NCBI GenBank assembly: GCA_019247715.1
Contig: JAFBAO010000107.1
Location: 24,377 to 88,376, forward strand
Direction of reading: 5' to 3'
Length of the DNA: 64,000 nt
From: Caulobacteraceae bacterium
Lineage (GTDB): Bacteria > Pseudomonadota > Alphaproteobacteria > Caulobacterales > Caulobacteraceae
The notes beneath the pieces were generated by a model. It did no database searches. It had not been told where the DNA came from and saw only the letters and a list, made by a program, of their open reading frames with translations. Below, one piece after another: positions 4,365-43,296 of the stretch. Within the stretch, counting starts at the first letter, position 1. Every line of letters begins with the position of its first letter. The position numbers were made by a program, and so were the translations under genes.

Positions 4365-7300
4365 GCCCCTCCGGCCCCTTCATCCGGCGGCCGATCGCCA
4401 CCTCGCTGATCGCCGCCGCCGTCTTCGTCTTCGGCCTGGTGGCCTACTTCGCCCTGCCGGTGGCCGCCCTCCCGCAGGTCGACTTCCCGACCTTGCAGGT
4501 GAGCGCCTCGCTGCCGGGGGCCAGCCCCGAGACCATGGCCTCCAACGTGGCGACCCCTCTGGAGCGGCAGCTGTCGCTGATCCCCGGGGTCACCCAGATG
4601 ACCTCGTCGAGCATCGGCGGCTCGACTTCCATCACCATCCAGTTCGAGCTGTCGCGCAACATCGACGCGGCGGCCCAGGACGTCCAGTCGGCGATCAACG
4701 CCGCCGGCGGCCAGCTTCCCACCAACCTTCCGGCCCCTCCGACCGTCCGCAAGGTCAACCCGGCCGATGCTCCGATCATGCTCCTGTCGCTGAAGTCGGA
4801 CACCCTGCCGCTCGAGGTGGTCAGCGACTACGCCGACAACATCCTCTCCCAGCAGATCTCGCGGATCGACGGGGTCGGCCTCGTCAACGTGGGCGGCCAG
4901 CAGAAACCGGCGATCCGCATCCGGATCGACCCCCGAAAGGCCGCCGCCCTCGGCCTGCAGCTGGACGCCGTGCGGGCGGCCATTGCGGCCAACACCGTCA
5001 ACGCCCCCAAGGGCGCGATCAACGGGCGGCAGAAGAGCCTGGCCGTCTACGCCAACGACCAGGTGCTGGACGTCGCCGTGTGGAACGATCTGATCGTCGG
5101 CTACCAGAACGGGGCGCCGATCCGAATCCGGGACATCGGCGAGGCGGTGCGTGGCCCGGAGAACAACCTGGCCGGCGCCTGGTCCTTTCCCGGCCCGGCC
5201 AACACCGATCCGGCCTTCAAGGGCGGCCGCGCGATCCTCCTGATCATCTTCAAGCAGCCGGGCGCCAACGTCATCAAGACGGTCGACAAGATCACCGCCG
5301 CGCTCCCGCGTCTCAAGTCGAACATCCCTCCAGCCATCGACGTCAGCGTGCTGGCCGATCGGACCCAGACCATCCGCGCCTCGGTCCGCGACGTGAAGAT
5401 CACCCTCCTGGTCACTATCGCGATGGTGGTGGGGGTCATCTTCCTGTTCCTGCGGAACGTGCGGGTGACGCTGATCCCCAGCTTGGTCATCCCGCTGTCG
5501 CTGCTCGGGACCGCGGCGATCATGCTGGCCGGCGGCTTCAGCCTCGACAACCTCTCGCTGATGGCGATGACGATCGCGGTGGGCTTCGTGGTCGACGACG
5601 CCATCGTCATGGTGGAGGTGATCTGGCGGCGCATCGAGGAGGGCGAACGGCCGCTGGCCGCCGCCCTGGCCGGATCCGGCGAAGTGGCGTTCACCATCCT
5701 CACCATCGCCATCTCCCTGATCGCCGTCTTCACGCCGCTGATGTTCATGGGCGGGGTGGTCGGACGGCTGATGCGCGAGTTCGCCCTCACCCTGAGCGCG
5801 GCGGTGTTCATCTCGGTGATCCTGTCGCTCAGCCTGACGCCCATGCTTTGCGGCCGGTTCCTGAGGGTGCCCAAGCCCGCGACGAACCGGTTCATGCTGG
5901 CGCTGGAGCGCGGCTTCGCTCGGATCGAACGCGGCTACGCCCGGGGCCTCGAGATCGTGCTGCGCCACAAGCGACTGACCTTCGGCGTATTCCTGGCCAC
6001 CGCCGCGGCGGCCTTCATCCTCTACCTCACCGTGCCCACCGGCTTCTTCCCCCAGCAGGACACCGGCTTCATCCAGGGCCAGATCATCACCTCGCAAGAC
6101 GCGTCGTTCGCCAAGATGGGCGACAAGGTGACCCAGGTGGGCCAGGTCATCGAACAGGATCCGGACGTCGCGACAGTCGGCATGTTCGTCGGCTTCAACG
6201 GCCTCAACAGCGCCAACACCAGCCTCACCCTGAGGCCGAAGGACGGCGGCCGCTCCGCCACCGCCGATCAGATCATCGGCCGGCTCCGCCCGAAGCTCGC
6301 CCAGCTGGTGGGCGTGCGCACCTACCTCCAGGCGTCGCAGGACATCAACGTCGGCGGCCGCATCTCCCGGGCCCAGTATCAGTACACGCTCTCAGACGCC
6401 GATCTGAACGAGCTCAACACCTGGGCGCCGAGACTGGAGGCCGCCCTCGAGGCCATGCCCGAACTGAAGGACGTGAGCTCCGACCTGCAGACTGAGGCCG
6501 CGGCGGTGAACCTGACCATCGACCGCGCCCAGGCCGCCCGCTTCGGAATCTCGCCCGCCGACATCGACGCGGCGATCTACAATCTGATCGGCCAGCACCA
6601 GGTGGCTCAATATTTCACCCAGCTGAACAGCTACCACGTGATCGTCGAGGCGCCGCCGAACCTGCAGCTGACTCCCGACCTCTTCGGCTCGGTCTATTTG
6701 CGCTCCCCGATCACCGGCAAGAGCGTGCCCCTGTCGCTGTTCGTCAAGGTCGACCCCAACGCCGTCAGCAGCCTCAGCGTGAGCCACCAGGGCCAGTTTC
6801 CGGCCGCCACCCTGTCGTTCAACCTGTCGCCAGGCGTAGCGCTCGGCCAGGCGACGGCGGCGGTGGAAGCCGCCCAGGCGAAGCTTGGCGCTCCGCCCAG
6901 CCTAACCGGCGATTTCCAGGGGACGGCCCAGGCCTTCCAGCAGTCGCTTTCCAGCGAGCCGGTCCTGATCGCGGCGGCCTTGCTCGCCGTCTACATCATT
7001 CTCGGCATTCTCTATGAGAGCTACATCCACCCTCTGACGATCCTGTCCACCCTGCCCTCGGCGGGTCTGGGCGCGCTGCTGGCCCTGCTGGCCGCCGGCC
7101 AGACGCTCAACGTGATCGGCATCATCGCGATCATCCTCCTGATCGGGATCGTCAAGAAGAACGGGATAATGATCGTCGACGTGGCGCTGAAGCTGGAGCG
7201 CGAGGAAGGTCTTCCGGCCGAACAGGCGGTGGCCCTGGCCTCGCAACGGCGCCTGCGGCCGATCCTGATGACCACGGCCTGCGCCATGCTGGGCGGCATG

Positions 7301-7561
7301 CCCATGATCCTGGCGCTGGGCACCGGCTCGGAGTTCCGCCAGCCCCTCGGCTACGGCATCGTGGGAGGCCTCGTGGTCTCCCAGATGCTCACCCTGTTCA
7401 CCACCCCGGTGATCTACATCTATCTGGACCGCTTCCGCCACCGGGGCGCTCGGAGACGCGCCGCGCCGCCCGTCCCCGAGCCGGAAACGCCTCCCCAGGC
7501 CCCTATTTCAGGAGGCCGTGCGCCAGCATCGCGAGAAGCAGTAGCGCAACGATATTCGTGA
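4361..7561 (+). CDS. RND efflux transporter permease (MdtB/MdtC-like, HAE1)
   Basis: [49 protein letters not shown]; coupled to the MFP by overlapping stop/start. Confidence 0.93.
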
Positions 7562-9629
7562 TCTTGATCATCGGGTTCACCGCCGGACCGGCGGTGTCCT
7601 TGTAGGGGTCGCCGACGGTGTCGCCGGTCACCGCGGCCTTGTGGGCCTCGGATCCCTTGCCGCCGTGGTGGCCTTCTTCGATCAGCTTCTTGGCGTTGTC
7701 CCAGGCCCCGCCGCCGGAGGTCATCGAAATGGCGACGAAGAGGCCGGTGACGATGACGCCCATGAGCATGGCGCCCAGGGCGGAGAAGGCCTCCGTTTTG
7801 CCGGCGATGGACCGGATCACGTAGAAGAGCACGATCGGCGAGGCCACGGGGAGCAGCGAGGGAACCACCATCTCGCGGATGGCGGCGCGGGTGAGGATGT
7901 CCACCGCCCGGCCGTATTCGGGCTTGACCTCATAGGTCATGATGCCCGGGTTCTCCTTGAACTGGCGGCGCACCTCGGCGACCACCGATTCGGCCGCCCG
8001 GCCCACCGCGGTCATGGAAAGCCCCCCGAACAGGAACGGCAGCAGGCCGCCAAACAGCAGACCCACGACCACGTAGGGATTGCTGAGGTCGAAACGCACC
8101 TCGCCCACGTCGGCGAAGAACGGGAAGGCGCCGGAATTGGCCGAGAAGAAATGCAGGTCCTGGGTGTAGGCGGCGAAGAGGACGAGGGCGCCCAGGCCCG
8201 CCGAGCCGATCGCGTAGCCCTTGGTGACCGCCTTGGTGGTGTTGCCCACCGCGTCCAGCGCATCGGTGGACACCCGCACATCGCCCGGCAGGCCGGCCAT
8301 CTCGGCGATGCCGCCGGCGTTGTCGGTGACCGGACCGAAGGCGTCCAGCGCGACGATGAAGCCCGCCAGGGACAGCATGGCGGTGGTGGCGATGGCGATG
8401 CCAAAGAGGCCGGCCAGGTTATAGGTGACGATGATGCCGGCGATGATCACCAGCGCCGGCGCCGCCGTGGACTCCAGCGACATGGCCAAGCCCTGGATCA
8501 CGTTGGTGCCGTGGCCGGAGACCGAGGCCTTGGCCACCGACTTGACCGGCCGGAAGCCGGTGCCGGTGTAGTATTCGGTGATCACCACGATGGCCGCGGT
8601 GACCAGCAGGCCCGCCAGGCCGCAGAAATAGAGCGCCATCGCATCGAAGGTCTTGCCCCCGGCGCTCAGCGGACCGGTGGGGACGAGCTTGGTGATGACG
8701 AAGTAGAGCGCCGCCGCCGAGAGCACGCCGGTGACGATGAGGCCCTGGTAGAGGGCGCCCATGATGTTGCGGCTCTTGCCGAGACGGACGAAGAAGGCGC
8801 CGATGATCGAGGTGACGACGCACGCCCCGCAGACGGCCAGCGGCAGCTCCATCATCGTCGCGGCCAGGCCGCCGGTGAAGAAGATCGCCGCCAGCACCAT
8901 GGTGGCCACGGTGGTCACCGCATAGGTCTCGAAGAGGTCGGCGGCCATGCCGGCGCAGTCGCCCACGTTGTCGCCCACGTTGTCGGCGATGGTGGCGGCG
9001 TTGCGCGGATCGTCTTCCGGAATGCCGGCCTCGACCTTGCCGACCATGTCGCCGCCGACGTCGGCCCCCTTGGTGAAGATGCCGCCGCCGAGGCGGGCGA
9101 AGATCGAGATCAGCGAGGCGCCGAAACCGAGCGCCACGAGGGAATCCACCACCTCGCGGCTGGTGTTCTCCAGATGCAGGGCCTGGGTGAGGATGAGGTA
9201 GTAGACCGACACGCCCAGCAGGGCGAAGCCGGCCACCAGCATGCCGGTCACCGCGCCGGACCGGAACGCCAGGGAGAGCCCCTGGGCCAGGCCCTTCGAG
9301 GCCGCCTCGGCGGTGCGGACGTTGGCCCGCACCGAGATCAGCATGCCGGCGAAGCCCGCCGCGCCCGAAAGGGCCGCCCCGATCAGGAAGCCGAGCGCCG
9401 CATAGGGCCCGATCAGAAAGTACACGGCGACGAGGATCACCAACCCGACGCCGGCGATCGTCGTGTACTGGCGGCGCAGATAGGCCTGGGCGCCCTCCTG
9501 GATCGCCGCGGCGATTTCACGCATCCGCTCATTGCCCGCCGGGGCCCGCAAGAGAGCGGCGGACTGGGCCACGCCGTAGAGCACGGCCAATGCGCCGGCG
9601 AGGATCACCAGCATCAGAACAGAACTCAT
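7503..9629 (-). CDS. hppA: Membrane H+-translocating pyrophosphatase, K+-independent type
   Basis: [41 protein letters not shown] motifs; [10 protein letters not shown] carries the Lys of K+-independent enzymes. Confidence 0.95.
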
Positions 9630-16067: not shown

Positions 16068-17084
16068 ATGACCCAGCCTCCGCTCGCCCCCTATCCCGCT
16101 CTGCGCTTGCGGCGCCTGCGTCAGGCCGACTGGATCCGCAGACTGGTGCGCGAGACGACCCTGACGCCGGCCGACCTCGTCTGGTCGGCGGTGGTCCACG
16201 AGGGCGAGGGACGCATCCCGGTGGCCTCGATGCCCGGCGTGGAGCGGCTGTCGGTGGCCGAGGCCGCCAAGGCGGCGCGCGAAGCGCGTGCGCTCGGGGT
16301 GCCGGCCATCGCCGTCTTCCCCCACATCGACGCCGGCCGAAAGGATCAGGCCGGGTCGGCCGCCGAGGATCCGGACGGCCTCGTGGCCCGGGCGGTCAAG
16401 GCTATGAAGGACGCGGCCCCCGAAGTCGGGGTCCTGTGCGACGTGGCCCTCGACCCCTTCACCGACCACGGCCACGACGGGATCATCGAGGGCGGCCGGA
16501 TCCTCAATGATGCGACCATCGAGCGCCTGGTGGCCCAGGGACTAATGCAGGCGAGAGCCGGCTGCGACATTTTGGCGCCCTCCGACATGATGGACGGCCG
16601 CGTCGGCGTCTTGCGGCGGGCGCTGGAGGCGGAGGGCCTTCAGGACACCATGATCATGTCCTACGCCGCCAAATACGCCTCGGCCTTCTACGGTCCCTAC
16701 CGCGAGGCGATCGGCTCCGGGAAGCTGGGCTCGGGGCCGAGCGCGAATCCGGGCGACAAGAAGACCTACCAGATGGACTTCGCCAACACCGACGAGGCCC
16801 TCAGGGAAGTCGCCCTCGACATCGCCGAGGGCGCCGACATGGTGATGGTCAAGCCCGGCCTGCCCTACCTCGACATCGTCCGGCGGGTGGTGGAAGCCTT
16901 CGCCATGCCCACCTTCGCCTTTCAGGTCTCCGGCGAGTACGCGATGATCATGGCCGCGGCGAAGAACGGCTGGCTCGACGAGGAGCGGTCGATCCTGGAG
17001 AGCCTCGGCGCCTTCAAGCGGGCCGGCTGTGCGGGGATCATCACCTACTTCGCGCCGGTCGCGGCGCGGCTGCTCGGGGCGTAG
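16068..17084 (+). CDS. hemB: Porphobilinogen synthase
   Basis: RLRRLR, DVALDPFTDHGHDG (non-Cys metal-B site), APSDMMDG, YAAKYASAFYGP, VMVKPG. Confidence 0.96.
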   Translation: MTQPPLAPYPALRLRRLRQADWIRRLVRETTLTPADLVWSAVVHEGEGRIPVASMPGVERLSVAEAAKAAREARALGVPAIAVFPHIDAGRKDQAGSAAEDPDGLVARAVKAMKDAAPEVGVLCDVALDPFTDHGHDGIIEGGRILNDATIERLVAQGLMQARAGCDILAPSDMMDGRVGVLRRALEAEGLQDTMIMSYAAKYASAFYGPYREAIGSGKLGSGPSANPGDKKTYQMDFANTDEALREVALDIAEGADMVMVKPGLPYLDIVRRVVEAFAMPTFAFQVSGEYAMIMAAAKNGWLDEERSILESLGAFKRAGCAGIITYFAPVAARLLGA

Positions 17085-34603: not shown

Positions 34604-35599
34604 CTAAAGGGCGCGGGTGGCGCGCAAGGACTTGGGCCTGGGTCCCCCAAGAGGAGCCTCGTCAGCCCCTGCGTCCGCCGCCTGGCCGAGCCAAGCCCGA
34701 TAGACCGCCACCGCCGCCGGGCGCCACCGGCGGACCGGTCGGGACCCGTCCAGGATCTCCAGGAAGGCGGGCAGCAGCGCCGGGTCGGACCGCAGGCGCG
34801 CCTGGGCGGTCAGCCGCTCCAGAGCCTGCTCGCTCTCGGCGTCGAGATAGCCAGCCGGCATGGCCGGCAGCCGCCCGCCGTTTCGGAAGAACCGCCCGAG
34901 GTCGCGGCCGTATTCGCGCAGCAGGCTGTCGGCTTCGTATTCCGGATGCCCCTGAAAGTAGAGCGACGCGCTTTCGCTCGGGCCCAGGAAGGCGTCCACG
35001 CCGGCGGTCGGCGAACGGCTCAGGATCTCATAGCCGGCGCTGACGAGATCCGCCTCGGCCAGGTCGTTCCAGCGCGAATGAGGAACCCAGAAGGCGTGGC
35101 TCAGGCCCTCGGCGAGGGGATGATCGCTGGCCGGCGCGCATGGGAACACCCCGCTCAGCTTTTCCGCCAGAGGCCGGCGGCGCACGCCTGCCTGATGCAG
35201 GACCGCCGCGTGGGCCGCCAGGCACGACCATACGGTGGGGACCCGCGCCGCCTCGGTCCAGTCGACCACCCGGCGAAGGTCGTCCCAATAGGGCTCGTCC
35301 TCGAGCGAGGCGGTGCGCGGCTCGGCCCCCGTGACGATGAGCCCGTCGAGGCCGGCGCCCGCCAGCGACCCGGCGTCGGCGTAGCGTCCTCGCATCTGCT
35401 CCCGGGCCCGCTCGCCCCTTTCAATCGCCGGCAAGGCGAAGAGGCGCAACTCCACGGAGAACTCGGTTCCCGCCTCCGCGAGCAGCCCCTCGAACTGGGC
35501 CTCGGCGGTCGCCAGCGCGCTGTCTCCGAGATTGTTGAGAAGACCGATGCGCAGCCGGCGCCGGCCGCCTCTCCTGGGCTCCTTGACGAGCGGGCTCAT
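34604..35599 (-). CDS. metA: Homoserine O-acyltransferase, MetA (HTS) family
   Basis: IGLLNN, DGLIVTGAEP, YWDDL, WSCLAAHA (catalytic Cys), PHSRWN, FQGHPEY; overlaps the metY stop. Confidence 0.85.
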   Translation of the reverse strand: MSPLVKEPRRGGRRRLRIGLLNNLGDSALATAEAQFEGLLAEAGTEFSVELRLFALPAIERGERAREQMRGRYADAGSLAGAGLDGLIVTGAEPRTASLEDEPYWDDLRRVVDWTEAARVPTVWSCLAAHAAVLHQAGVRRRPLAEKLSGVFPCAPASDHPLAEGLSHAFWVPHSRWNDLAEADLVSAGYEILSRSPTAGVDAFLGPSESASLYFQGHPEYEADSLLREYGRDLGRFFRNGGRLPAMPAGYLDAESEQALERLTAQARLRSDPALLPAFLEILDGSRPVRRWRPAAVAVYRAWLGQAADAGADEAPLGGPRPKSLRATRAL

Positions 35600-36885
35600 G
35601 GCCGCTTGCCGGCCAGCGCACCCGCCAACGCTTGGTCGAGATCGCCGATGATGTCGTCCACGTGCTCGATGCCGACGCAGAGCCGGATCATCTCGGGCGT
35701 CACCCCCGCCTTGGCGCGCTCGTCGTTGGTCATCTGCCTGTGGGTGGTGGAGGCCGGGTGGCAAGCCAGCGACTTCACGTCGCCGATGTTCACCAGCCGC
35801 TTGATGAGGCCGAGGCGGTCGTAGAAGACCTTGGCCGTCTCGAACCCGCCCGCCACGCCGAAGGTCAGCAGCGAGGGCGGGGTTCCGCGGAGATACTTCT
35901 GGGCGAGCTCGAAGTAGGGGCTCTCGGCGAAGCCCGCATAGCTCACCCACTCGATGCGCGGATCGGCCTTCAGGAATTCGGCGACCCGGCGGGCGTTCTC
36001 CACGTGCCGCTCCACCCGCAGCGCCACCGTCTCGATCCCCTGCAGCAGCAGGAAGGCGTTGAGCGGCGCCAGCACCGCCCCGGTGGTGCGCTGATAGACG
36101 CTGCGGATGCGCGCGGCGTAGGCGGCGGGGCCGAAGCGTTCGGTGTAGACGAGACCGTGATACGAGGCGTCCGGCTCGCTGAACATCGGGAACCGCGCCC
36201 GCTGGGCCGCCCAGTCGAAACGGCCGCCATCGACAACGACGCCGCCCATGGTGGTTCCGTGTCCGCCCATGAACTTGGTCAACGAATGAACCACGATGTC
36301 GGCGCCATGCTCGAAGGGGCGAAGCAGGATCGGGGTCGCCACCGTGTTGTCGACGATGAGGGGAACGCCGTGCCGATGGGCGGCCTCGGCGATGCCCGCG
36401 ATGTCGCAGATGTTGCCGGCCGGATTGCCGACGCTTTCGCAGAACACCGCCCGCGTATTTTCGTCGATGAGCCGCTCGATCGCTTCGGGGCTGTCGCTCT
36501 CGGCGAACCGCCCCTCGATCCCCTGCCTTGGAAGGACGTGCGAGAGCAGGGTGTGGCTCGTCCCATAGAGCTGCGGGGTTGAGACGATGTTGCCGCCGCG
36601 GTCCGCCAGGTTCACCAGGGCGTAGTGCAGCGCCGCCTGGCCCGAGGCGACCGCCACCGAAGCTGCGCCGCCCTCGAGCTCGGTCACCCGGGTCTCCAGG
36701 ATCGTGGTGGTGGGATTGGCGATCCGGCTGTAGCGGTAGCCCTCGACCTCGAGGTTGAACAGGGCCGCGCCGTGGTCGGCGCTCTCGAAGGCGTAGGCGG
36801 CCGTCTGATAGATCGGGACCGCGACCGCCCGGGTGGCCGGGTCGCAGTCGAAGCCGCTGTGGACGGCGATGGTCTCCCGGCGCAT
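35596..36885 (-). CDS. metY: O-acylhomoserine aminocarboxypropyltransferase (sulfhydrylase)
   Basis: AVPIYQT, YSRIANPT, VDNT, HSLTKFMGGHG (PLP Lys), NIGDVKSL..HPASTTH. Confidence 0.9.
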   Translation of the reverse strand: MRRETIAVHSGFDCDPATRAVAVPIYQTAAYAFESADHGAALFNLEVEGYRYSRIANPTTTILETRVTELEGGAASVAVASGQAALHYALVNLADRGGNIVSTPQLYGTSHTLLSHVLPRQGIEGRFAESDSPEAIERLIDENTRAVFCESVGNPAGNICDIAGIAEAAHRHGVPLIVDNTVATPILLRPFEHGADIVVHSLTKFMGGHGTTMGGVVVDGGRFDWAAQRARFPMFSEPDASYHGLVYTERFGPAAYAARIRSVYQRTTGAVLAPLNAFLLLQGIETVALRVERHVENARRVAEFLKADPRIEWVSYAGFAESPYFELAQKYLRGTPPSLLTFGVAGGFETAKVFYDRLGLIKRLVNIGDVKSLACHPASTTHRQMTNDERAKAGVTPEMIRLCVGIEHVDDIIGDLDQALAGALAGKRP

Positions 36886-36951
36886 GAAGGCCTCCGATGC
36901 CGGCGCACTGATCTCGAATTGGACCGGCGCCAGCGTCCCGCGCAACAAAAC

Positions 36952-36967
36952 TGCAGGACGCATGCCG
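36952..36967 (-). promoter_or_regulatory. Putative sigma54 -24/-12 promoter for metY-metA
   Basis: Minus strand CGGCAT-GCGTC-CTGCA; invariant GG and GC correctly spaced. Confidence 0.5.
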
Positions 36968-36977
36968 GGCCGGCGGC

Positions 36978-36993
36978 TGGCGCGCGTCTTGCT
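36978..36993 (+). promoter_or_regulatory. Sigma54 -24/-12 promoter for the long-chain acyl-CoA synthetase
   Basis: TGGCGC-GCGTC-TTGCT, 44 nt before ATG 37038. Confidence 0.7.
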
Positions 36994-37037
36994 CCATTCG
37001 GTGTTAAGCCCCTCATTAGGCCCCGTCGACGCAAACC

Positions 37038-38819
37038 ATGCCCCCTGAGACCGAGGCGATTGCAAAGCCCGCGCTGCGCTCCGCGAACAAGGACTGGCTG
37101 CGCGCGCTGGAAATGACCGGCCGCCTGGAAGCGCGGCCGAACCGCATCCTGCCGAGCGTAATCGACGAGCAGGCAGAGCGGCTGGGCGAGGCGCCGGCCC
37201 TGCTTTCGGAAAGCGAGACCCTTTCGTTCCCGGCCCTGGCCGGGCGCGTCCGACGCTACGGGCGGTGGGCCCTGGAGAGCGGACTGGGCAAGGGCGACGT
37301 CGTCGCCCTGCTGATGCCGAACCGTCCCGAATACCTGGCCGCCTGGCTCGGGCTCACGCGGGTGGGCGTCGTGACGGGCTTGCTCAACCCTGAGCTCCGA
37401 GGCGCCTCTCTGGCGCACTGCGTGGGTGTCGCGCGCGCCAAGCGGATCATCGTGGACGCGCGGCTGGCGGGCGGCCTGCTGGAGGCCATCGGCGTCGAAG
37501 GGCCGCCGATCGTCGTTCACGGCGAAGGCTGGAGCGGCCTGCCGCGGATCGATCTGGAGCTCGCGACGCTTCCGGCCGAGGCGGCGGGGCCGGAGGTCAC
37601 CCTCGCCGACCCGGCCCTGCTCATCTACACCTCCGGCACCACCGGTTTGCCCAAGGCGGCGCGGGTCAGCCACCACCGGGTCATGAGCTGGAGCTACTGG
37701 TTCGCGGGCCTCGCCGACATCCGGCCCACCGACCGGCTCTACGACTGCCTGCCGCTCTGCCACAGCGCTGGCGGCGTGGCGGCGGTGGGCGCGGCGCTGG
37801 TCGGCGGCGCCTCGACCGTCATCGCCCCGAAATTCTCGGCCAGCCGCTTCTGGGACGAGGTGACGGACTGGGAGTGCACCCTCTTCCAGTACATCGGCGA
37901 GCTCTGCCGCTATCTCCTGGCCGCGCCGCCTCACCCGAGGGAACGGGCGCATCGCCTGAGGCTCTGCTGCGGCAACGGCCTGGCCGGCGACGTCTGGACC
38001 GCGTTCCAACAGCGCTTCGCCGTCCCCCAGATCCTGGAGTTCTACGCCGCCACCGAGGGCACGTTCTCGCTCTACAACGTGGAGGGAAAGCCCGGGGCGA
38101 TCGGGCGGGTGCCGCCGCTCCTGCGGCATCGGTTCCCGGCGGCGATCGTCAAGTACGACGCCGACGCCCGCGCGCCGGCCCGCAACCCCGAGGGCTTCTG
38201 CATCCCCTGCGCCAGCGGCGAGGCGGGAGAGGCCATCGGCCGGATCGCCTCCCAGGGAACCGGCCGGTTCGAGGGCTACACCGACATTGCCGAGAGCCAG
38301 AAGAAGCTGCTGCGCGACGTCTTCGCCCCCGGCGACGCCTGGTTCCGGACCGGCGACCTGATGCGCCAGGACGACCAGGCTTTCTGGTATTTCGTCGACC
38401 GGATCGGCGACACTTTCCGCTGGAAGGGAGAGAACGTCTCCGCCGCCGAGGTCGCCGAAGCTCTGCGCGCCTTCCCGGGGATCCGGGACGCCAGCGTCTA
38501 TGGCGTCGTCGTTCCCGGCGCCGGCGGGCGGGCCGGCATGGCCGCGGTGGTCGCCGGCCCCGATTTCGATCTCGCCGTCCTGCCGGCGCACCTGGCGGCG
38601 CGCCTCCCGGACTACGCGAGACCGGTCTTCCTGAGGCTCGTCCCGACGCTGGCGGTGACCGAGACCTTCAAGCCGAAGAAGGCGGCGCTGGCCGAGGAGG
38701 GCTATGATCCGGGCCGCTCGGACGATCCCCTCTACCTCTACGACCGCGAGCGGGGAGCCTATGTGGGTCTGGATGCGGACCTTCTCGCGCAGGTCCGAGA
38801 GGGGCGACTGCGCCTCTGA
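37038..38819 (+). CDS. Long-chain acyl-CoA synthetase (FATP/SLC27-like)
   Basis: IYTSGTTGLPKAA, FQYIGELCRYL, WFRTGDL, DRIGDTFRWKGENVS. Confidence 0.9.
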   Translation: MPPETEAIAKPALRSANKDWLRALEMTGRLEARPNRILPSVIDEQAERLGEAPALLSESETLSFPALAGRVRRYGRWALESGLGKGDVVALLMPNRPEYLAAWLGLTRVGVVTGLLNPELRGASLAHCVGVARAKRIIVDARLAGGLLEAIGVEGPPIVVHGEGWSGLPRIDLELATLPAEAAGPEVTLADPALLIYTSGTTGLPKAARVSHHRVMSWSYWFAGLADIRPTDRLYDCLPLCHSAGGVAAVGAALVGGASTVIAPKFSASRFWDEVTDWECTLFQYIGELCRYLLAAPPHPRERAHRLRLCCGNGLAGDVWTAFQQRFAVPQILEFYAATEGTFSLYNVEGKPGAIGRVPPLLRHRFPAAIVKYDADARAPARNPEGFCIPCASGEAGEAIGRIASQGTGRFEGYTDIAESQKKLLRDVFAPGDAWFRTGDLMRQDDQAFWYFVDRIGDTFRWKGENVSAAEVAEALRAFPGIRDASVYGVVVPGAGGRAGMAAVVAGPDFDLAVLPAHLAARLPDYARPVFLRLVPTLAVTETFKPKKAALAEEGYDPGRSDDPLYLYDRERGAYVGLDADLLAQVREGRLRL

Positions 38820-39749
38820 TCAGCCGATCAGGCCGCGCAACTGCGCCCCGATCGCGGTCGCCGCCGCCTCGCCGTAGGGAATCGCCTGCGCCAGCGCATA
38901 GAAGTAGTGAATCATCCCTGCGTGGCAGGTCTCTTCCACCTTCACACCGGCGCCCTTCAGTCGCCCGGCGTAGGCCGTGCCCTCGTCCCGGAACGGATCG
39001 AACTCGGCCGTATGCAACAGCGTCGGCGGGAGTCCCTCGAAGCTGGCCGCCTGCAGCGGAGAAAGGCGCGGATCGCGACGATCGAGAGGCGGCGGGCAAT
39101 AGGCGTCGACATCCCGGTCCATGGTCGCGCGACTGAGGAAGAAGCCCTCGGAGAGGGCGCGCCGCGATTCCGACTCTTCGGCGAGGTCGAGGATCGGGCA
39201 GATCAGCAGTTGGGCGGCGATCATCGGGCCGCCTTGGTCCCGGAGCGCGGCGCTGGCGGCGGCGGCGAGGCCCCCGCCGGCCGAATCCCCCCCGATCGCC
39301 AGCCGATCCGGATCGATCCCCAGCTCCGCCGCCTTGTCCCCCACCCACCGCACCGCGGCCAGAGCGTCGTCGAACGCGGCCGGGAAAGGGTGTTCCGGCG
39401 CGAGCCGGTAGTCGACCGCGACCACGGTCAGGCGCGCGGCCTCGGCGAGCCGCCCGCAAAGGCCCCCATGCGTCTCGGCGCCCCCGGCGACCCAGCCCCC
39501 GCCGTGGAGGAAGACCAGCGCCGGCTGCGGTCCATCCGAAGCCTCTGCAGGCGCATAGAGGTCGAGCCCGACAGCGCCCCCGGGGCCGGGCGCCTCCAGG
39601 CGGCGGACGGGCGCGCGGCCAGGGCGATCGGCCATCTGCGCCAGGGCTCGCAGGCCCTCGCGCCGCGCGGCCGCCGTCGCCTCCGCGCCCGCCGAACCGC
39701 CGGCCGCCAGCATGTCCAGAAGGCGCTGGGCGCGGCGATCGAGCGGCAT
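38820..39749 (-). CDS. Alpha/beta hydrolase, HSL family esterase
   Basis: HGGG oxyanion motif, GDSAGG nucleophile, EFDPFRDEG, GMIH. Confidence 0.92.
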   Translation of the reverse strand: MPLDRRAQRLLDMLAAGGSAGAEATAAARREGLRALAQMADRPGRAPVRRLEAPGPGGAVGLDLYAPAEASDGPQPALVFLHGGGWVAGGAETHGGLCGRLAEAARLTVVAVDYRLAPEHPFPAAFDDALAAVRWVGDKAAELGIDPDRLAIGGDSAGGGLAAAASAALRDQGGPMIAAQLLICPILDLAEESESRRALSEGFFLSRATMDRDVDAYCPPPLDRRDPRLSPLQAASFEGLPPTLLHTAEFDPFRDEGTAYAGRLKGAGVKVEETCHAGMIHYFYALAQAIPYGEAAATAIGAQLRGLIG

Positions 39750-39758
39750 GAGGGAAAG

Positions 39759-40025
39759 CTAGGCCGCCAGGCCGATGGCGTCCACCAGGCGGCAGATGGC
39801 GTCTATGCTGCGGAAGTTCGCCGGCGTCATCTGCTTCTGGGGAATCTCGATGCCGAAGGCGTCTTCCACCGCGAGCATCAGATTGACCATGTCCAGCGAG
39901 GTGAGGCCGAGCTCCGTCAGGTCGTGAGCCGGATCCAGCGGACCGGCGATCCCCCGCCGGGCCATGACCCCTTCCACGATGCCGGTGATCGTCGCCTGCG
40001 CCGACGCTGTAGACCCCTGCCCCAT
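39759..40025 (-). CDS. Carrier protein 1 (phosphopantetheine-binding; likely cognate of the aa:CP ligase)
   Basis: LGLTSLDMVNLMLAVEDAFGIEIPQKQMTPANF; Ppant Ser in GLTS. Confidence 0.88.
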   Translation of the reverse strand: MGQGSTASAQATITGIVEGVMARRGIAGPLDPAHDLTELGLTSLDMVNLMLAVEDAFGIEIPQKQMTPANFRSIDAICRLVDAIGLAA

Positions 40026-40112
40026 CTCAACACCCCAACGGCGCCGCGGCGCCACACTTTCGTCCCATTCCGGACCGGTTCCAACGACCGTCCTATTCGG
40101 GATTGCGCGGGT

Positions 40113-40128
40113 TGCAAGCGGCAAGCCA
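40113..40128 (-). promoter_or_regulatory. Putative sigma54 promoter for carrier protein 1 and the esterase
   Basis: Minus strand TGGCTT-GCCGC-TTGCA. Confidence 0.6.
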
Positions 40129-40201
40129 CCAGGCGGCGAAGTCCGCGCCATGATTGAGCGTCGAATAGGCTCGGCGGCCCAGTGACGAACCGCTTGCCGG
40201 G

Positions 40202-40217
40202 TGGCATGGGGATTGCT
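40202..40217 (+). promoter_or_regulatory. Sigma54 promoter for the ACAD-ligase operon
   Basis: TGGCAT-GGGGA-TTGCT, near-perfect consensus, 64 nt before ATG 40282. Confidence 0.75.
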
Positions 40218-40281
40218 GATCTGGCGTCCGAGCAAGCGACGTCGCCACCTTTCGGCCGTCGGATGAATCAGGGATCAGCGT

Positions 40282-41496
40282 ATGGGCGTTCAAGACTTCC
40301 ACCGGGCCAGCGAGCCAAGCACGGTCGCGAAGGGTCCGATCGTCGCCGAGCCGCTGATGGCGCGCGCCGCGCGCGCCGCCGCCGTCGCGGCCGCACACGC
40401 CGAGGCGGTCGATCGCGACGCGCGCTTTCCTGCTGAAGCGATCGCCGCCGCCAAGGCCGAGGGACTGTTGGGGGTCATGGTCCCGGCTTCGCTGGGCGGC
40501 GAGGGGCTCGGCCTTCGCCAGGTGATGGAGGTCTGCTACACGCTCGGCCGAGCCTGCGCGTCGACGGCGATGATCTACGCCATGCACCAGGTGAAGGTGG
40601 CGTGCGTGGTCCGCCATGGCGTGGGCAGCGCCTGGCACGAGGACTTCCTGCGGCGCCTGGTGCGCGAGCAGCTCTTGCTCGCCTCCTCCACCACCGAGGG
40701 ACAGGGCGGCGGCAACGTCCGCTCCAGCGAAGCGCCGATCGAGCGGTCCGGCGACCGGATCTCGCTGGTCCGGGCGGCGAGCGTGATCTCCTACGGCGAA
40801 GCGGCCGATGCGGTGGTCACCACCGCCCGCCGGGCCCCCGATGCGTCGGCCTCCGACCAGGTGCTGACGGTGTTCCTGCGCGCCGATTACAGCCTGGAGC
40901 GCAATCTGGAGTGGGACACGCTCGGCATGCGCGGCACCTGCAGCGCCGGGTTCACCCTGCGGGCCGAGGGCGAGGCCGCGCAAATCCTGCCGGTCGCCTA
41001 CGAGACCATCCACGCCCACAGCATGGTTCCGGCCGCCCACATCCTCTGGTCCAGCACCTGGGCCGGCGTCGCCGCTTCCGCGGTGGAGCGGGCGCGGCGC
41101 TACCTGCGCAAGGCCGCCGCGGCCGGGGCCCTGCCGCCGAGCGCCCCCTATTTCACCCGCGCCAACGGCGAGCTGAGGGCGCTGCGGGCGCTGATCGCCG
41201 CCGCGGTCGATCGCTACGAGGCGGTCATGGACCAGCCTGACGCCCTTTCGGCGATGGATTTCCAATCGCAGATCAGCCTGCTGAAGGTGGACACCTCGGA
41301 ACTGGCGGTCTCGGCGGTGATGAGCGCCATGCGTTGCTGCGGGCTCTCCGGCTACCGCAACGACTCTGACGCCTCCATCGGACGGCGACTGCGCGACATC
41401 CTCTCGGCGCCGATCATGATCAACAACGACCGCATCCTGGCCAACGTCGGCGCTTCGGCGCTGCTGACCGAGGTGGCGGCCTCCATCAAGGACTGA
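40282..41496 (+). CDS. Acyl-CoA dehydrogenase-fold flavoprotein (atypical)
   Basis: AVDRDARFP, CASTAMIYAMH, SSTTEGQGGGN, WDTLGMRGTCS, RRLRDILSAPIMINND. Confidence 0.85.
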   Translation: MGVQDFHRASEPSTVAKGPIVAEPLMARAARAAAVAAAHAEAVDRDARFPAEAIAAAKAEGLLGVMVPASLGGEGLGLRQVMEVCYTLGRACASTAMIYAMHQVKVACVVRHGVGSAWHEDFLRRLVREQLLLASSTTEGQGGGNVRSSEAPIERSGDRISLVRAASVISYGEAADAVVTTARRAPDASASDQVLTVFLRADYSLERNLEWDTLGMRGTCSAGFTLRAEGEAAQILPVAYETIHAHSMVPAAHILWSSTWAGVAASAVERARRYLRKAAAAGALPPSAPYFTRANGELRALRALIAAAVDRYEAVMDQPDALSAMDFQSQISLLKVDTSELAVSAVMSAMRCCGLSGYRNDSDASIGRRLRDILSAPIMINNDRILANVGASALLTEVAASIKD

Positions 41497-41499
41497 ACC

Positions 41500-42411
41500 G
41501 TGAACGACATGCCCAGATTCCAAGGCAAGGCGGACACCCTGAAGGAGGGGCTTTTCCTGCCCAGCGGCGTGGACGGGATCTACGCCCGCACCGGCCTTTA
41601 CGAGGGGGTGGTGGAGTCGCTCGCCGCCCTGATCTCTTCGGAGCGTCCCGCCGGCGCCGAGGTGCTGCGGTTCCCGCCCGTGATGAGCCGCGCCCAGATC
41701 GAGCGGCACGGCTACCTGAAGAGCTTTCCGAACCTCCTGGGCTGCGTCAGCTGCCTGACCGGCGACGAGCGGCATATCCGCGGCGTCGTCCAGCGGTTCG
41801 AGGAGGGCGCCGATTGGACGAGCGAGCTCGGGGCGGCCGATCTGGTGCTGGCCCCGGCGGCCTGCTATCCGGTTTACCCTCTGGCCGCCGCCCGGGGAGC
41901 GGTCCCCGCCGAAGGCCTCACCTTCGACGTGGCCGCCGATTGCTTCCGGCGTGAGCCTTCCACCGACATCGACCGCTTCCAGTCCTTCCGGATGCGCGAA
42001 TATGTCCGCATCGGCTCGCCCGAGCAGATCCACGCGTTCCGCGAGGCGTGGATCGGGCGGGCCAAGAGCCTCGCCGACCGTCTCGGCCTCGGCTACCGCA
42101 TCGACCTCGCCAGCGACCCCTTCTTCGGACGCGGCGGGGCGATCGTGGCCGCCAGCCAGATCGAGCAGGCGCTCAAGTTCGAGTTGCTCATCCCGGTGCG
42201 CTCCGAGGCCGAGCCGACCGCCTGCATGAGCTTCAACTACCACCAGGACCACTTCGGGCTCACCTGGGACCTGCGAACCGGCGACGGCGGCCCCGCCCAC
42301 ACCGGCTGCGTGGCCTTCGGCATGGACCGGCTGGCCGTCGCCATGTTCGCCACCCACGGTCTCGATACGGACGCCTGGCCGGCGGGCGTGCGAAAGGCGT
42401 TGAAGCTCTGA
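41500..42411 (+). CDS. Amino acid:[carrier protein] ligase (truncated atypical SerRS homolog)
   Basis: GYLKSFP, PAACYPVYP (Zn Cys), motif 2 CFRREPS, FRMREYV (Zn Glu), SDPFFGR, SFNYHQDHFG, HTGCVAFGMDR (Zn Cys, motif 3); no tRNA-binding domain. Confidence 0.92.
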   Translation: MNDMPRFQGKADTLKEGLFLPSGVDGIYARTGLYEGVVESLAALISSERPAGAEVLRFPPVMSRAQIERHGYLKSFPNLLGCVSCLTGDERHIRGVVQRFEEGADWTSELGAADLVLAPAACYPVYPLAAARGAVPAEGLTFDVAADCFRREPSTDIDRFQSFRMREYVRIGSPEQIHAFREAWIGRAKSLADRLGLGYRIDLASDPFFGRGGAIVAASQIEQALKFELLIPVRSEAEPTACMSFNYHQDHFGLTWDLRTGDGGPAHTGCVAFGMDRLAVAMFATHGLDTDAWPAGVRKALKL

Positions 42412-42486: not shown

Positions 42487-43296
42487 ATGGGCTACGAGGC
42501 CGCCCTGGCGGGCTACGAGAAGTTCGACTTCCGCGACGGGCGCTGGACCAGACCCGTCTGGCGACGCGGATCGGGGCCGGCGGTGATCGTGATCCATGAG
42601 ATGCCGGGCCTGCATCCCGGCGTGATCGCCTTCGCGGACCGGGTGGCGGCGGCCGGCATGACCGTGTTCTGCCCTGTCCTCTTCGGGGTCGCCGGTCGAC
42701 CGATGACCCATCCTGGCGGGCTCCTCACCATGCTCGGGGGCCTTTGCATCCGGCGCGAGTTCGCCGTCTGGTCCGCGGGACGCTCGAGCCCGATCGTGGA
42801 TTGGCTGCGCGCCCTTTCGCGCCAGGCCCGCGCCGAGTGCGGCGGCAAAGGGGTGGGCGCGGTGGGCATGTGCTTCACCGGCGGCTTCGCCCTGGCGATG
42901 ATGACCGAGCCGGCCGTGACCGCCCCGGTGCTCTCGCAACCCTCTCTGCCGATGGCGCCCGGGAGCCGGCGCCGCGCGGCCGGCGTCGACGCCTCGGCCG
43001 CCGAGATCGCCTGCGCCCGACGGCGCTTCGCCGAGGAGGACCTCTCGATGATCGGGCTGCGCTTCCTGGGCGACCCCATGGTCCCGGACGCCCGGTTCGA
43101 CACCCTCAAGCGCGAGTTCGGCGACCGGTTCGAGGCCATCGAGATCGAGCCGCAGGACGCGGCCCCCGGGCCCCTCAAGAACCCCCATTCGGTGCTGACC
43201 GCCAACCTCGCCGAAACTGGCCCCACCAAGGCCGCCGAGACGCGGGTGATCGCCTTCTTCCGCGAGCGGACCGGCGCAGGGGCCGTGAACCCATAG
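42487..43296 (+). CDS. Dienelactone hydrolase family protein
   Basis: VIVIHEMPG, GAVGMCFTGG (Cys nucleophile), HSVL. Confidence 0.85.
   Translation: MGYEAALAGYEKFDFRDGRWTRPVWRRGSGPAVIVIHEMPGLHPGVIAFADRVAAAGMTVFCPVLFGVAGRPMTHPGGLLTMLGGLCIRREFAVWSAGRSSPIVDWLRALSRQARAECGGKGVGAVGMCFTGGFALAMMTEPAVTAPVLSQPSLPMAPGSRRRAAGVDASAAEIACARRRFAEEDLSMIGLRFLGDPMVPDARFDTLKREFGDRFEAIEIEPQDAAPGPLKNPHSVLTANLAETGPTKAAETRVIAFFRERTGAGAVNP

Follow-up and report, generated by a model that had tools for sequence, protein, structure and literature searches.

How is a pathway built around an amino acid:carrier-protein (aa:CP) ligase switched on? To our knowledge, the biochemistry and structure of these ligases have been characterised since 2010, and their product and physiological role remain unknown. 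The question is raised by the locus described here, in which a first-pass annotation had read back-to-back sigma-54 promoters between a carrier-protein gene and an ACAD-ligase operon. In this work "the window" means the whole 64-kb stretch of DNA that was analysed, and all coordinates without a contig name refer to it.

The ligase locus and its putative promoter pairs

The genes of the cluster, in the order of their coordinates, are as follows.

34604-35599, minus strand: metA-type homoserine O-acyltransferase (PF04204, E 2.5e-57), with a 4-nt overlap with the metY stop
35596-36885, minus strand: metY-type PLP enzyme of the O-acetylhomoserine sulfhydrylase family (PF01053, E 4e-129), in the P_metY unit
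37038-38819, plus strand: long-chain acyl-CoA synthetase, FACL (NF006134, 725 bits, cut-off 625), in the P_FACL unit
38820-39749, minus strand: hormone-sensitive-lipase-type esterase, alpha/beta hydrolase 3 (PF07859, E 1.7e-73)
39759-40025, minus strand: carrier protein of 88 aa, PP-binding (PF00550, E 4.6e-9), first gene of the P_ACP unit
40282-41496, plus strand: ACAD-fold protein (PF02771, PF00441), first gene of the P_ACAD unit
41500-42411, plus strand: amino acid--[acyl-carrier-protein] ligase, the SerRS-like aa:CP ligase (NF005479 equivalog, 464.9 bits, cut-off 357)
42487-43296, plus strand: dienelactone-hydrolase-like protein (PF01738), downstream of the ligase

A SerRS-like ligase, a cognate carrier protein and an ACAD are thus found in one locus, as in aa:CP ligase clusters. 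The ligase gene begins 3 nt past the ACAD stop, and the esterase gene lies 9 nt downstream of the carrier gene, with which it probably shares a transcript. The esterase scored 305 bits against NF058653, which is under the cut-off of 350. The start of the carrier protein is backed by ortholog alignments beginning at residue 1, and the start of metY was revised to the ATG at 36885 (N-terminus MRRETIAVHSG). Orthologs of the ACAD protein at the equivalent position are 70-75% identical. For the dienelactone-hydrolase-like gene, tblastn found no homolog in the extended same-genus loci, and the operon of this genome seems to have acquired it recently. We also noticed a second metY-type paralog (50% identical) outside the window, at G000 C54:31117-32364, and a single copy of the HTS-type metA.

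Four putative promoters and one leader element were located in the two intergenic regions of this cluster.

40202-40217, plus strand: P_ACAD, TGGCATGGGGATTGCT, putative sigma-54 -24/-12 element reading TGGCAT-GGGGA-TTGCT
40128->40113, minus strand: P_ACP, TGGCTTGCCGCTTGCA, putative sigma-54 -24/-12 element reading TGGCTT-GCCGC-TTGCA
36978-36993, plus strand: P_FACL, TGGCGCGCGTCTTGCT, putative sigma-54 -24/-12 element 44 nt 5' of the long-chain acyl-CoA synthetase ATG at 37038
36967->36952, minus strand: P_metY, CGGCATGCGTCCTGCA, weaker sigma-54-type element 66 nt 5' of the metY ATG at 36885
36908-36926, no strand assigned: conserved metY 5'UTR element, consensus GRTCYCGAWTTGCGTCA, kept in 7 of 8 extended loci including the window

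The two strings of the carrier|ACAD region, both within the 256-bp gap between the carrier-protein gene and the ACAD-ligase operon, were present at the positions and on the strands that the first-pass annotation had given. Its claim of exact -24 GG/-12 GC spacing also held: GG and GC stand 10 nt apart at both sites, as they do at P_FACL and P_metY, and each motif is directed at its own adjacent gene. When compared with TGGCACG-N4-TTGCW, the sigma-54 consensus reportedly compiled by Barrios and co-workers in 1999, P_ACAD and P_FACL each match 11 of the 12 specified positions, P_ACP matches 10, and P_metY about 9; the last deviates by a C at -26, the missing T at -15 and CGGCA at -24. P_ACP of this genome carries TT at -22/-21, where orthologs have AC or AT.

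All four sites lie in non-coding DNA, with 44-88 nt from the motif end to the ATG in this genome. The P_ACAD motif ends 64 nt before the ACAD ATG (40282, plus strand), and the P_ACP motif 87 nt before the carrier-protein ATG (40025, minus strand). The transcription start sites predicted from these positions are at about 40227-40228 for P_ACAD, with a 5'UTR of about 54 nt, and at about 40102 for P_ACP, with a 5'UTR of about 76 nt; those predicted for the second pair are at about 37004 (plus strand) for P_FACL and about 36941 (minus strand) for P_metY. P_metY and P_FACL are on opposite strands and separated by 10 bp, so that the locus contains two back-to-back pairs, 3 kb apart.

The GRTCYCGAWTTGCGTCA element lies 55-70 bp upstream of the -24 of P_FACL and falls inside the predicted metY leader, at about nt 25-40. 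When the genome was scanned with a matrix of it, the element proved locus-specific and showed no association with other sigma-54 sites, and the idea that it serves as a general enhancer was rejected. So was the idea of a riboswitch in the leaders: at E<=1 Rfam assigned no family to them, and the sole match was a chance one to CRISPR-DR15 (E 0.21). The element could be a leader RNA element or the site of a local regulator.

Rarity and conservation of the motifs

One explanation to be weighed is that such strings are chance matches in GC-rich DNA, with no function. The count within the window does little against it, as TGGC-N7-TTGCW was seen 3 times with 0.64 expected and 3 of 100 shuffles reached 3, which is only marginally above chance; the bare GG-N10-GC pattern occurs 114,276 times in the genome. 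The longer patterns are much rarer: TGGC-N7-TTGCW has 48 matches on both strands of the 4.06-Mb genome (8.1 Mb of search space), 3 of which fall in this 3.3-kb stretch, and TGGCAY-N5-TTGCW has only 3. The genome-wide matrix scan that the first-pass annotation had proposed was done with a position matrix built from 31 sites in other genomes only. It placed all four sites of the locus among the 20 best of the whole 4.06-Mb genome, with P_ACAD at rank 1, P_ACP at 7, P_FACL at 15 and P_metY at 20 (score 15.9), although this ranking is not independent of the textbook consensus, because the ortholog sites had been chosen with that consensus. The Poisson probability of at least four such matches in 8.4 kb of search space is about 3e-9. 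As a positive control, the same scoring recovered sigma-54-type sites in front of the flagellin gene, flgF and flgI.

Searching with the ACAD protein identified the cluster in 8 of 36 same-genus genomes, where the order metY<- ->FACL, esterase<-carrier<- ->ACAD->ligase is maintained. The conservation of the motifs in orthologous intergenic regions, another check that had been suggested for them, is strongest for P_ACP, which is kept in all ten same-genus loci having the divergent arrangement. P_FACL is kept in 8/8 extended loci (window included), and so is P_metY, in the form CGGCA[CT]-N6-TGCA. P_ACAD is more variable. Among the 11 loci with the divergent pair or a P_ACAD site, it is canonical in six, a TTGAA variant in three and absent from two (G018 and L021). 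It reads TGGCA[CT]-N5-TTGCT in G033, G024, G026, G003 and G007, and TGGCA[CT]-N5-TTGAA, with GA for GC at -12, in L020, L022 and G031, which suggests that this lineage may tolerate A at -12. The variant P_ACAD sites are at L020:2605, L022:2607 and L106:7889; the same variant was also seen in non-coding DNA at G000 C94:45002 and C51:41497, upstream of TadE-like and polysaccharide flippase genes.

The exceptional loci differ in their details. In G018 (L103, 3743-3985) an AT-rich stretch of about 200 bp without any -24/-12 match takes the place of P_ACAD and P_ACP is retained; the ACAD-ligase operon of this genome may have switched to another promoter type. A candidate P_ACAD in L021 (TGGC-N6-TTGAA) was rejected, as its spacing is one base short and it lies between the arms of a CTTCAAG/CTTGAAG inverted repeat. 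In L106 (G031, 5613-7977) an insert of about 2.3 kb separates the carrier gene from ACAD, beside which the TTGAA-variant P_ACAD has stayed; no P_ACP match scoring at least 9/12 was found in this locus.

Conservation stands out at the motifs themselves. Column information reaches 1.5-1.7 bits at the specified motif positions; over 60 nt on their 5' side it is 0.27-0.54, and over 40 nt on their 3' side 0.40-0.83. When 16 promoter segments were aligned with MAFFT without gaps, no columns were invariant other than TGGC and the TG of TTGC. The relatives' loci, 101 kb in total, contain 21 consensus matches, and 19 of these sit in one or other of the two intergenic regions. Paired motifs are separated by 8-129 bp in the carrier|ACAD region and by 7-91 bp in the metY|FACL region, whereas the distance from each motif to its own start codon in relatives is mostly about 45-120 nt; P_FACL of G007, at 13 nt, is an outlier that may reflect a different start. 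A variable gap combined with a steady distance to the own gene argues for two independent promoters and not for one dimeric operator.

These data effectively refute the chance reading, to which we give almost no credence: a 3.3-kb stretch contains four of the genome's 20 best sites, all four are non-coding and gene-facing, and they are kept in up to 10 other genomes in which their flanks are not, in co-occurrence with rpoN (see below). The orthologous loci share 55-80% protein identity, which argues against near-identical recent transfers. Position and conservation together lift the motifs far above chance. We therefore consider it very probable, judging from their sequence and context, that both carrier|ACAD motifs are genuine RpoN -24/-12 promoters.

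Outside the genus the picture is different. A scan of the collection with the aa:CP ligase alignment gave 80 further loci, and the divergent carrier|ACAD-ligase core is present in 76 of them, with Bradyrhizobium, Rhodopseudomonas, Methylobacterium, Methylocapsa, Phenylobacterium sp. LjRoot225 and many MAGs among its holders. The sigma-54-type site, however, is absent from 71 of the 76 loci scored outside the genus; those that have one are L020-L023, which are near relatives, and L066, a Roseiarcus MAG, and L034 has a weaker pair that is below threshold. The motifs are thus not intrinsic to the pathway, and their distribution indicates that the sigma-54 wiring is a lineage-specific acquisition. 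Motifs of the GTTAAC type were observed between the divergent genes in many lineages (the carrier|ACAD region of L104/L105, and L100, L102, L103, L033, L034, L054, L066 and L088), for example as a direct repeat with a 10-bp period, GTTAACYGGCGTTAACT, and lineages without sigma-54 sites are included among them. This motif is absent from the intergenic region of this genome. It may be bound by another regulator, possibly an ancestral one.

RpoN, enhancer-binding proteins and the putative activator

The genome has one copy of rpoN, on contig C60 (PF04552, 226.8 bits), and rpoN is present in 7/7 of the motif-bearing relatives fetched by genome handle. The same-genus genome G020, which is 100% complete (loci L017 and L107), has no rpoN; its cluster is rearranged, with an ACAD of 48% identity and a co-directional carrier gene, and carries no motif. 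In G020 no enhancer-binding protein (EBP) of the FlbD or TacA type was found, and its only strong PF00158 matches (150-163 bits) are in the NtrC/NtrX range. The co-occurrence of rpoN and motif, with seven genomes having both and one having neither, is small but consistent.

Four true EBPs were found in the genome with PF00158, none of them on the contig of the window.

FlbD: NF050807, 811 bits, cut-off 750; GAFTGA loop
NtrX: NF051870, 740 bits, cut-off 600; the loop reads ELFGEEGEGG, with no GAFTGA
NtrC-like protein: the L1 loop reads ELFGKGDGDYGKL, with a deletion of about 8 residues that removes GAFTGA
Fourth EBP, TacA-like: REC-AAA+-HTH architecture, GSFTGA loop, Asp54

A GAFTGA-type loop is therefore intact only in FlbD and the TacA-like regulator. 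The set matches that of Caulobacter, whose bacterial EBPs are NtrC, NtrX, FlbD and TacA, with GAFTGA only in FlbD and TacA (North et al. 2023, 10.1101/2023.06.06.543975). Phenylobacterium EBPs share about 80% identity with the fourth protein; a homology search with it returned generic names only and no named TacA. We infer that it is TacA-like from its domains and residues; it carries an Asp at position 54, and the D54E substitution of TacA is phosphomimetic (PMC7010744).

The first-pass annotation had stated that no enhancer-binding activator is encoded in the window, and profile and tblastn searches of the 64 kb agreed with it. Nor did tblastn find an EBP in the 80 related loci, which were covered for up to 4 kb to either side of the ligase gene, or in eight same-genus loci of 10-16 kb. 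Activation must consequently come in trans. The PrsR/PEP-CTERM system, which was suggested by the acyl-CoA-ligase and carrier context, was rejected, as the best TIGR02915 score was 356.9 bits with a cut-off of 502.6. Of the trans circuits that had been offered for the pathway (nitrogen, developmental or surface-sensing), one has become less likely: NtrC and NtrX without GAFTGA make nitrogen control of the cluster improbable.

Two candidates then have to be compared. The promoters could be real and be served by FlbD, in which case the cluster and the late flagellar genes would be expressed together. In favour of this, just one other EBP of the genome shares with FlbD an intact GAFTGA-type loop, the divergent sigma-54 promoters flaN/flbG of Caulobacter are known to be under its control, and CTTGCCGGG, which resembles a half-site, lies directly next to the -24 of P_ACAD. 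However, the promoters of flagellin, flgF and flgI have ftr-like dyads nearby (CGGCA-N5-TGCCG with A/T-rich spacers), and neither intergenic region of the cluster contains one. Matches to ftr with at most 2 mismatches between 36600 and 40500 lie only in coding sequence or transcribed leaders, have GC-rich spacers, and occur at about the genome's chance rate. In addition, sigma-54-type sites accompany many non-flagellar genes (polysaccharide export, chain-length, flippase, GT2 glycosyltransferase, TadE, DUF1465 and XRE-type regulator genes), so a second, non-flagellar sigma-54 regulon with its own activator must exist; it seems to be centred on surface polysaccharide and pilus genes. Control by FlbD thus appears unlikely. 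As a side observation, three sigma-54-type sites fall in one polysaccharide export/chain-length/ATPase cluster, at G000 C42:8805, 9563 and 15725.

The TacA-like protein is proposed as the activator by elimination, being the sole remaining one with a GAFTGA-type loop. Together with its domain architecture, Asp54 and the roughly 80% identity to Phenylobacterium proteins, this makes us lean towards it, with a confidence a little short of even.

Searches for a shared enhancer gave little. Dyad-symmetric 5-mers with gaps of 0-12 were sought in 18 orthologous intergenic regions and nothing recurrent was found, and no IHF site was identified at the promoters. In some species the two motifs of a pair are separated by only 7-10 bp, and an upstream site would not fit between them. 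Elsewhere in the genome, at G000 C14 (about 16290-16480), an XRE-type (staR-like) gene with a sigma-54-type site has four copies of GAAGTTCGC, two per orientation, at distances of about 30-180 nt 5' of its -24/-12 element, and one near-copy, GAAGTCCGC, is found in the carrier|ACAD spacer at about 40136-40144. GAAGTTCGC may be regarded as a candidate enhancer motif.

The lack of a detected enhancer brings in another explanation, namely that the motifs bind the sigma-54 holoenzyme or another protein while transcription comes from other promoters, the sites being roadblocks or silencers, or weakly used. Pairs 7-10 bp apart, at which two closed complexes would clash, could be accounted for in this way, as could G018, where the operon is retained without P_ACAD. 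The same may be said of Bradyrhizobium, in which the orthologous genes bll0957 and bll0958 have no sigma-54 motif and the levels of both proteins are up in a B. diazoefficiens phaR mutant (PMC10888616). We nevertheless judge a roadblock role to be highly improbable, since each motif, in one species after another, faces its own gene from a promoter-like distance and conservation follows the exact positions contacted by sigma-54. Moreover, scanning 36700-40500 for E. coli-type sigma-70 promoters gave none, although such a scan is poorly suited to an alphaproteobacterium of 70% GC.

Taken as a whole, the best explanation is probably that of four sigma-54 promoters with an activator encoded elsewhere, for which we infer a TacA-like protein. 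Leftward transcription of the carrier-protein and esterase genes would start at P_ACP, and rightward transcription of the ACAD and aa:CP-ligase operon at P_ACAD, whereas P_metY would drive metY-metA and P_FACL the long-chain acyl-CoA synthetase. The sigma-54 RNA polymerase would wait at these sites as a closed complex and fire only once an AAA+ enhancer-binding protein encoded elsewhere hydrolyses ATP. If the TacA-like regulator were that protein, the pathway would be tied to a developmental or c-di-GMP-type programme and not to nitrogen status. A bolder version, which we put forward as possible but doubtful, is that the two bidirectional units, tightly packed and having no local enhancer or activator gene, place the ligase pathway, metY-metA and the acyl-CoA synthetase together under a TacA-type developmental/c-di-GMP phosphorelay; the product would then be cell-cycle- or surface-associated, and the two polymerases of a pair would compete for, or share, one activation event.

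Implications and comparison with known systems

A conserved, lineage-specific sigma-54 wiring offers a concrete prediction of when the pathway is expressed, and a first clue to its use. A constitutively active EBP allele would provide a handle to force expression and look for the product. The wiring also argues for co-regulation of metY-metA and the acyl-CoA synthetase with the carrier/ACAD/ligase core, so that a wider set of enzymes should be considered. Finally, back-to-back promoters 7-10 bp apart with no detectable enhancer make a compact test case for one activator serving two closed complexes.

The sites resemble canonical RpoN promoters in having GG and GC 10 nt apart, the TGGC and TTGC blocks and a distance of 45-120 nt to the start codons, in a genome that encodes both rpoN and EBPs with GAFTGA-type loops. 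They differ from them in that no enhancer or IHF site was found here, and in the recurrent TTGAA variant of the -12 element and the CGGCA of P_metY.

The closest arrangement in the same bacterial order is the flaN/flbG pair of Caulobacter crescentus, divergent sigma-54 promoters that Mullin and Newton reportedly described together with FlbD and ftr elements. There too, two sigma-54 promoters are opposed in one intergenic region and the activator is encoded elsewhere. In contrast to flaN/flbG, the present cluster has no ftr-like dyads, its genes are metabolic and not flagellar, and some of its pairs are only 7-10 bp apart.

The developmental ShkA-ShpA-TacA/sigma-54 regulon of Caulobacter includes staR and spmX (PMC7010744; 10.1101/2023.06.06.543975). 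The genome studied here has the same four-EBP set, with a fourth EBP of REC-AAA+-HTH architecture that shares the GSFTGA loop and the Asp at 54 known from TacA D54E, and its XRE-type (staR-like) genes carry sigma-54-type sites; on the other hand, the orthology of this EBP to TacA is a presumed one. We know of no aa:CP ligase cluster reported in any TacA regulon.

As to the enzymes, aa:CP ligases of Bradyrhizobium and Agrobacterium were reportedly the subject of work by Mocibob and co-workers in PNAS in 2010. The clusters of these bacteria have the same core, with the carrier gene divergent from the ACAD-ligase operon, whereas the loci of Bradyrhizobium, Rhodopseudomonas, Methylobacterium and Phenylobacterium lack the sigma-54 motif. 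Viewed next to these systems, the four sites are predicted to belong to an ordinary, well-known class of promoters, placed here in an unusually compact bidirectional layout.
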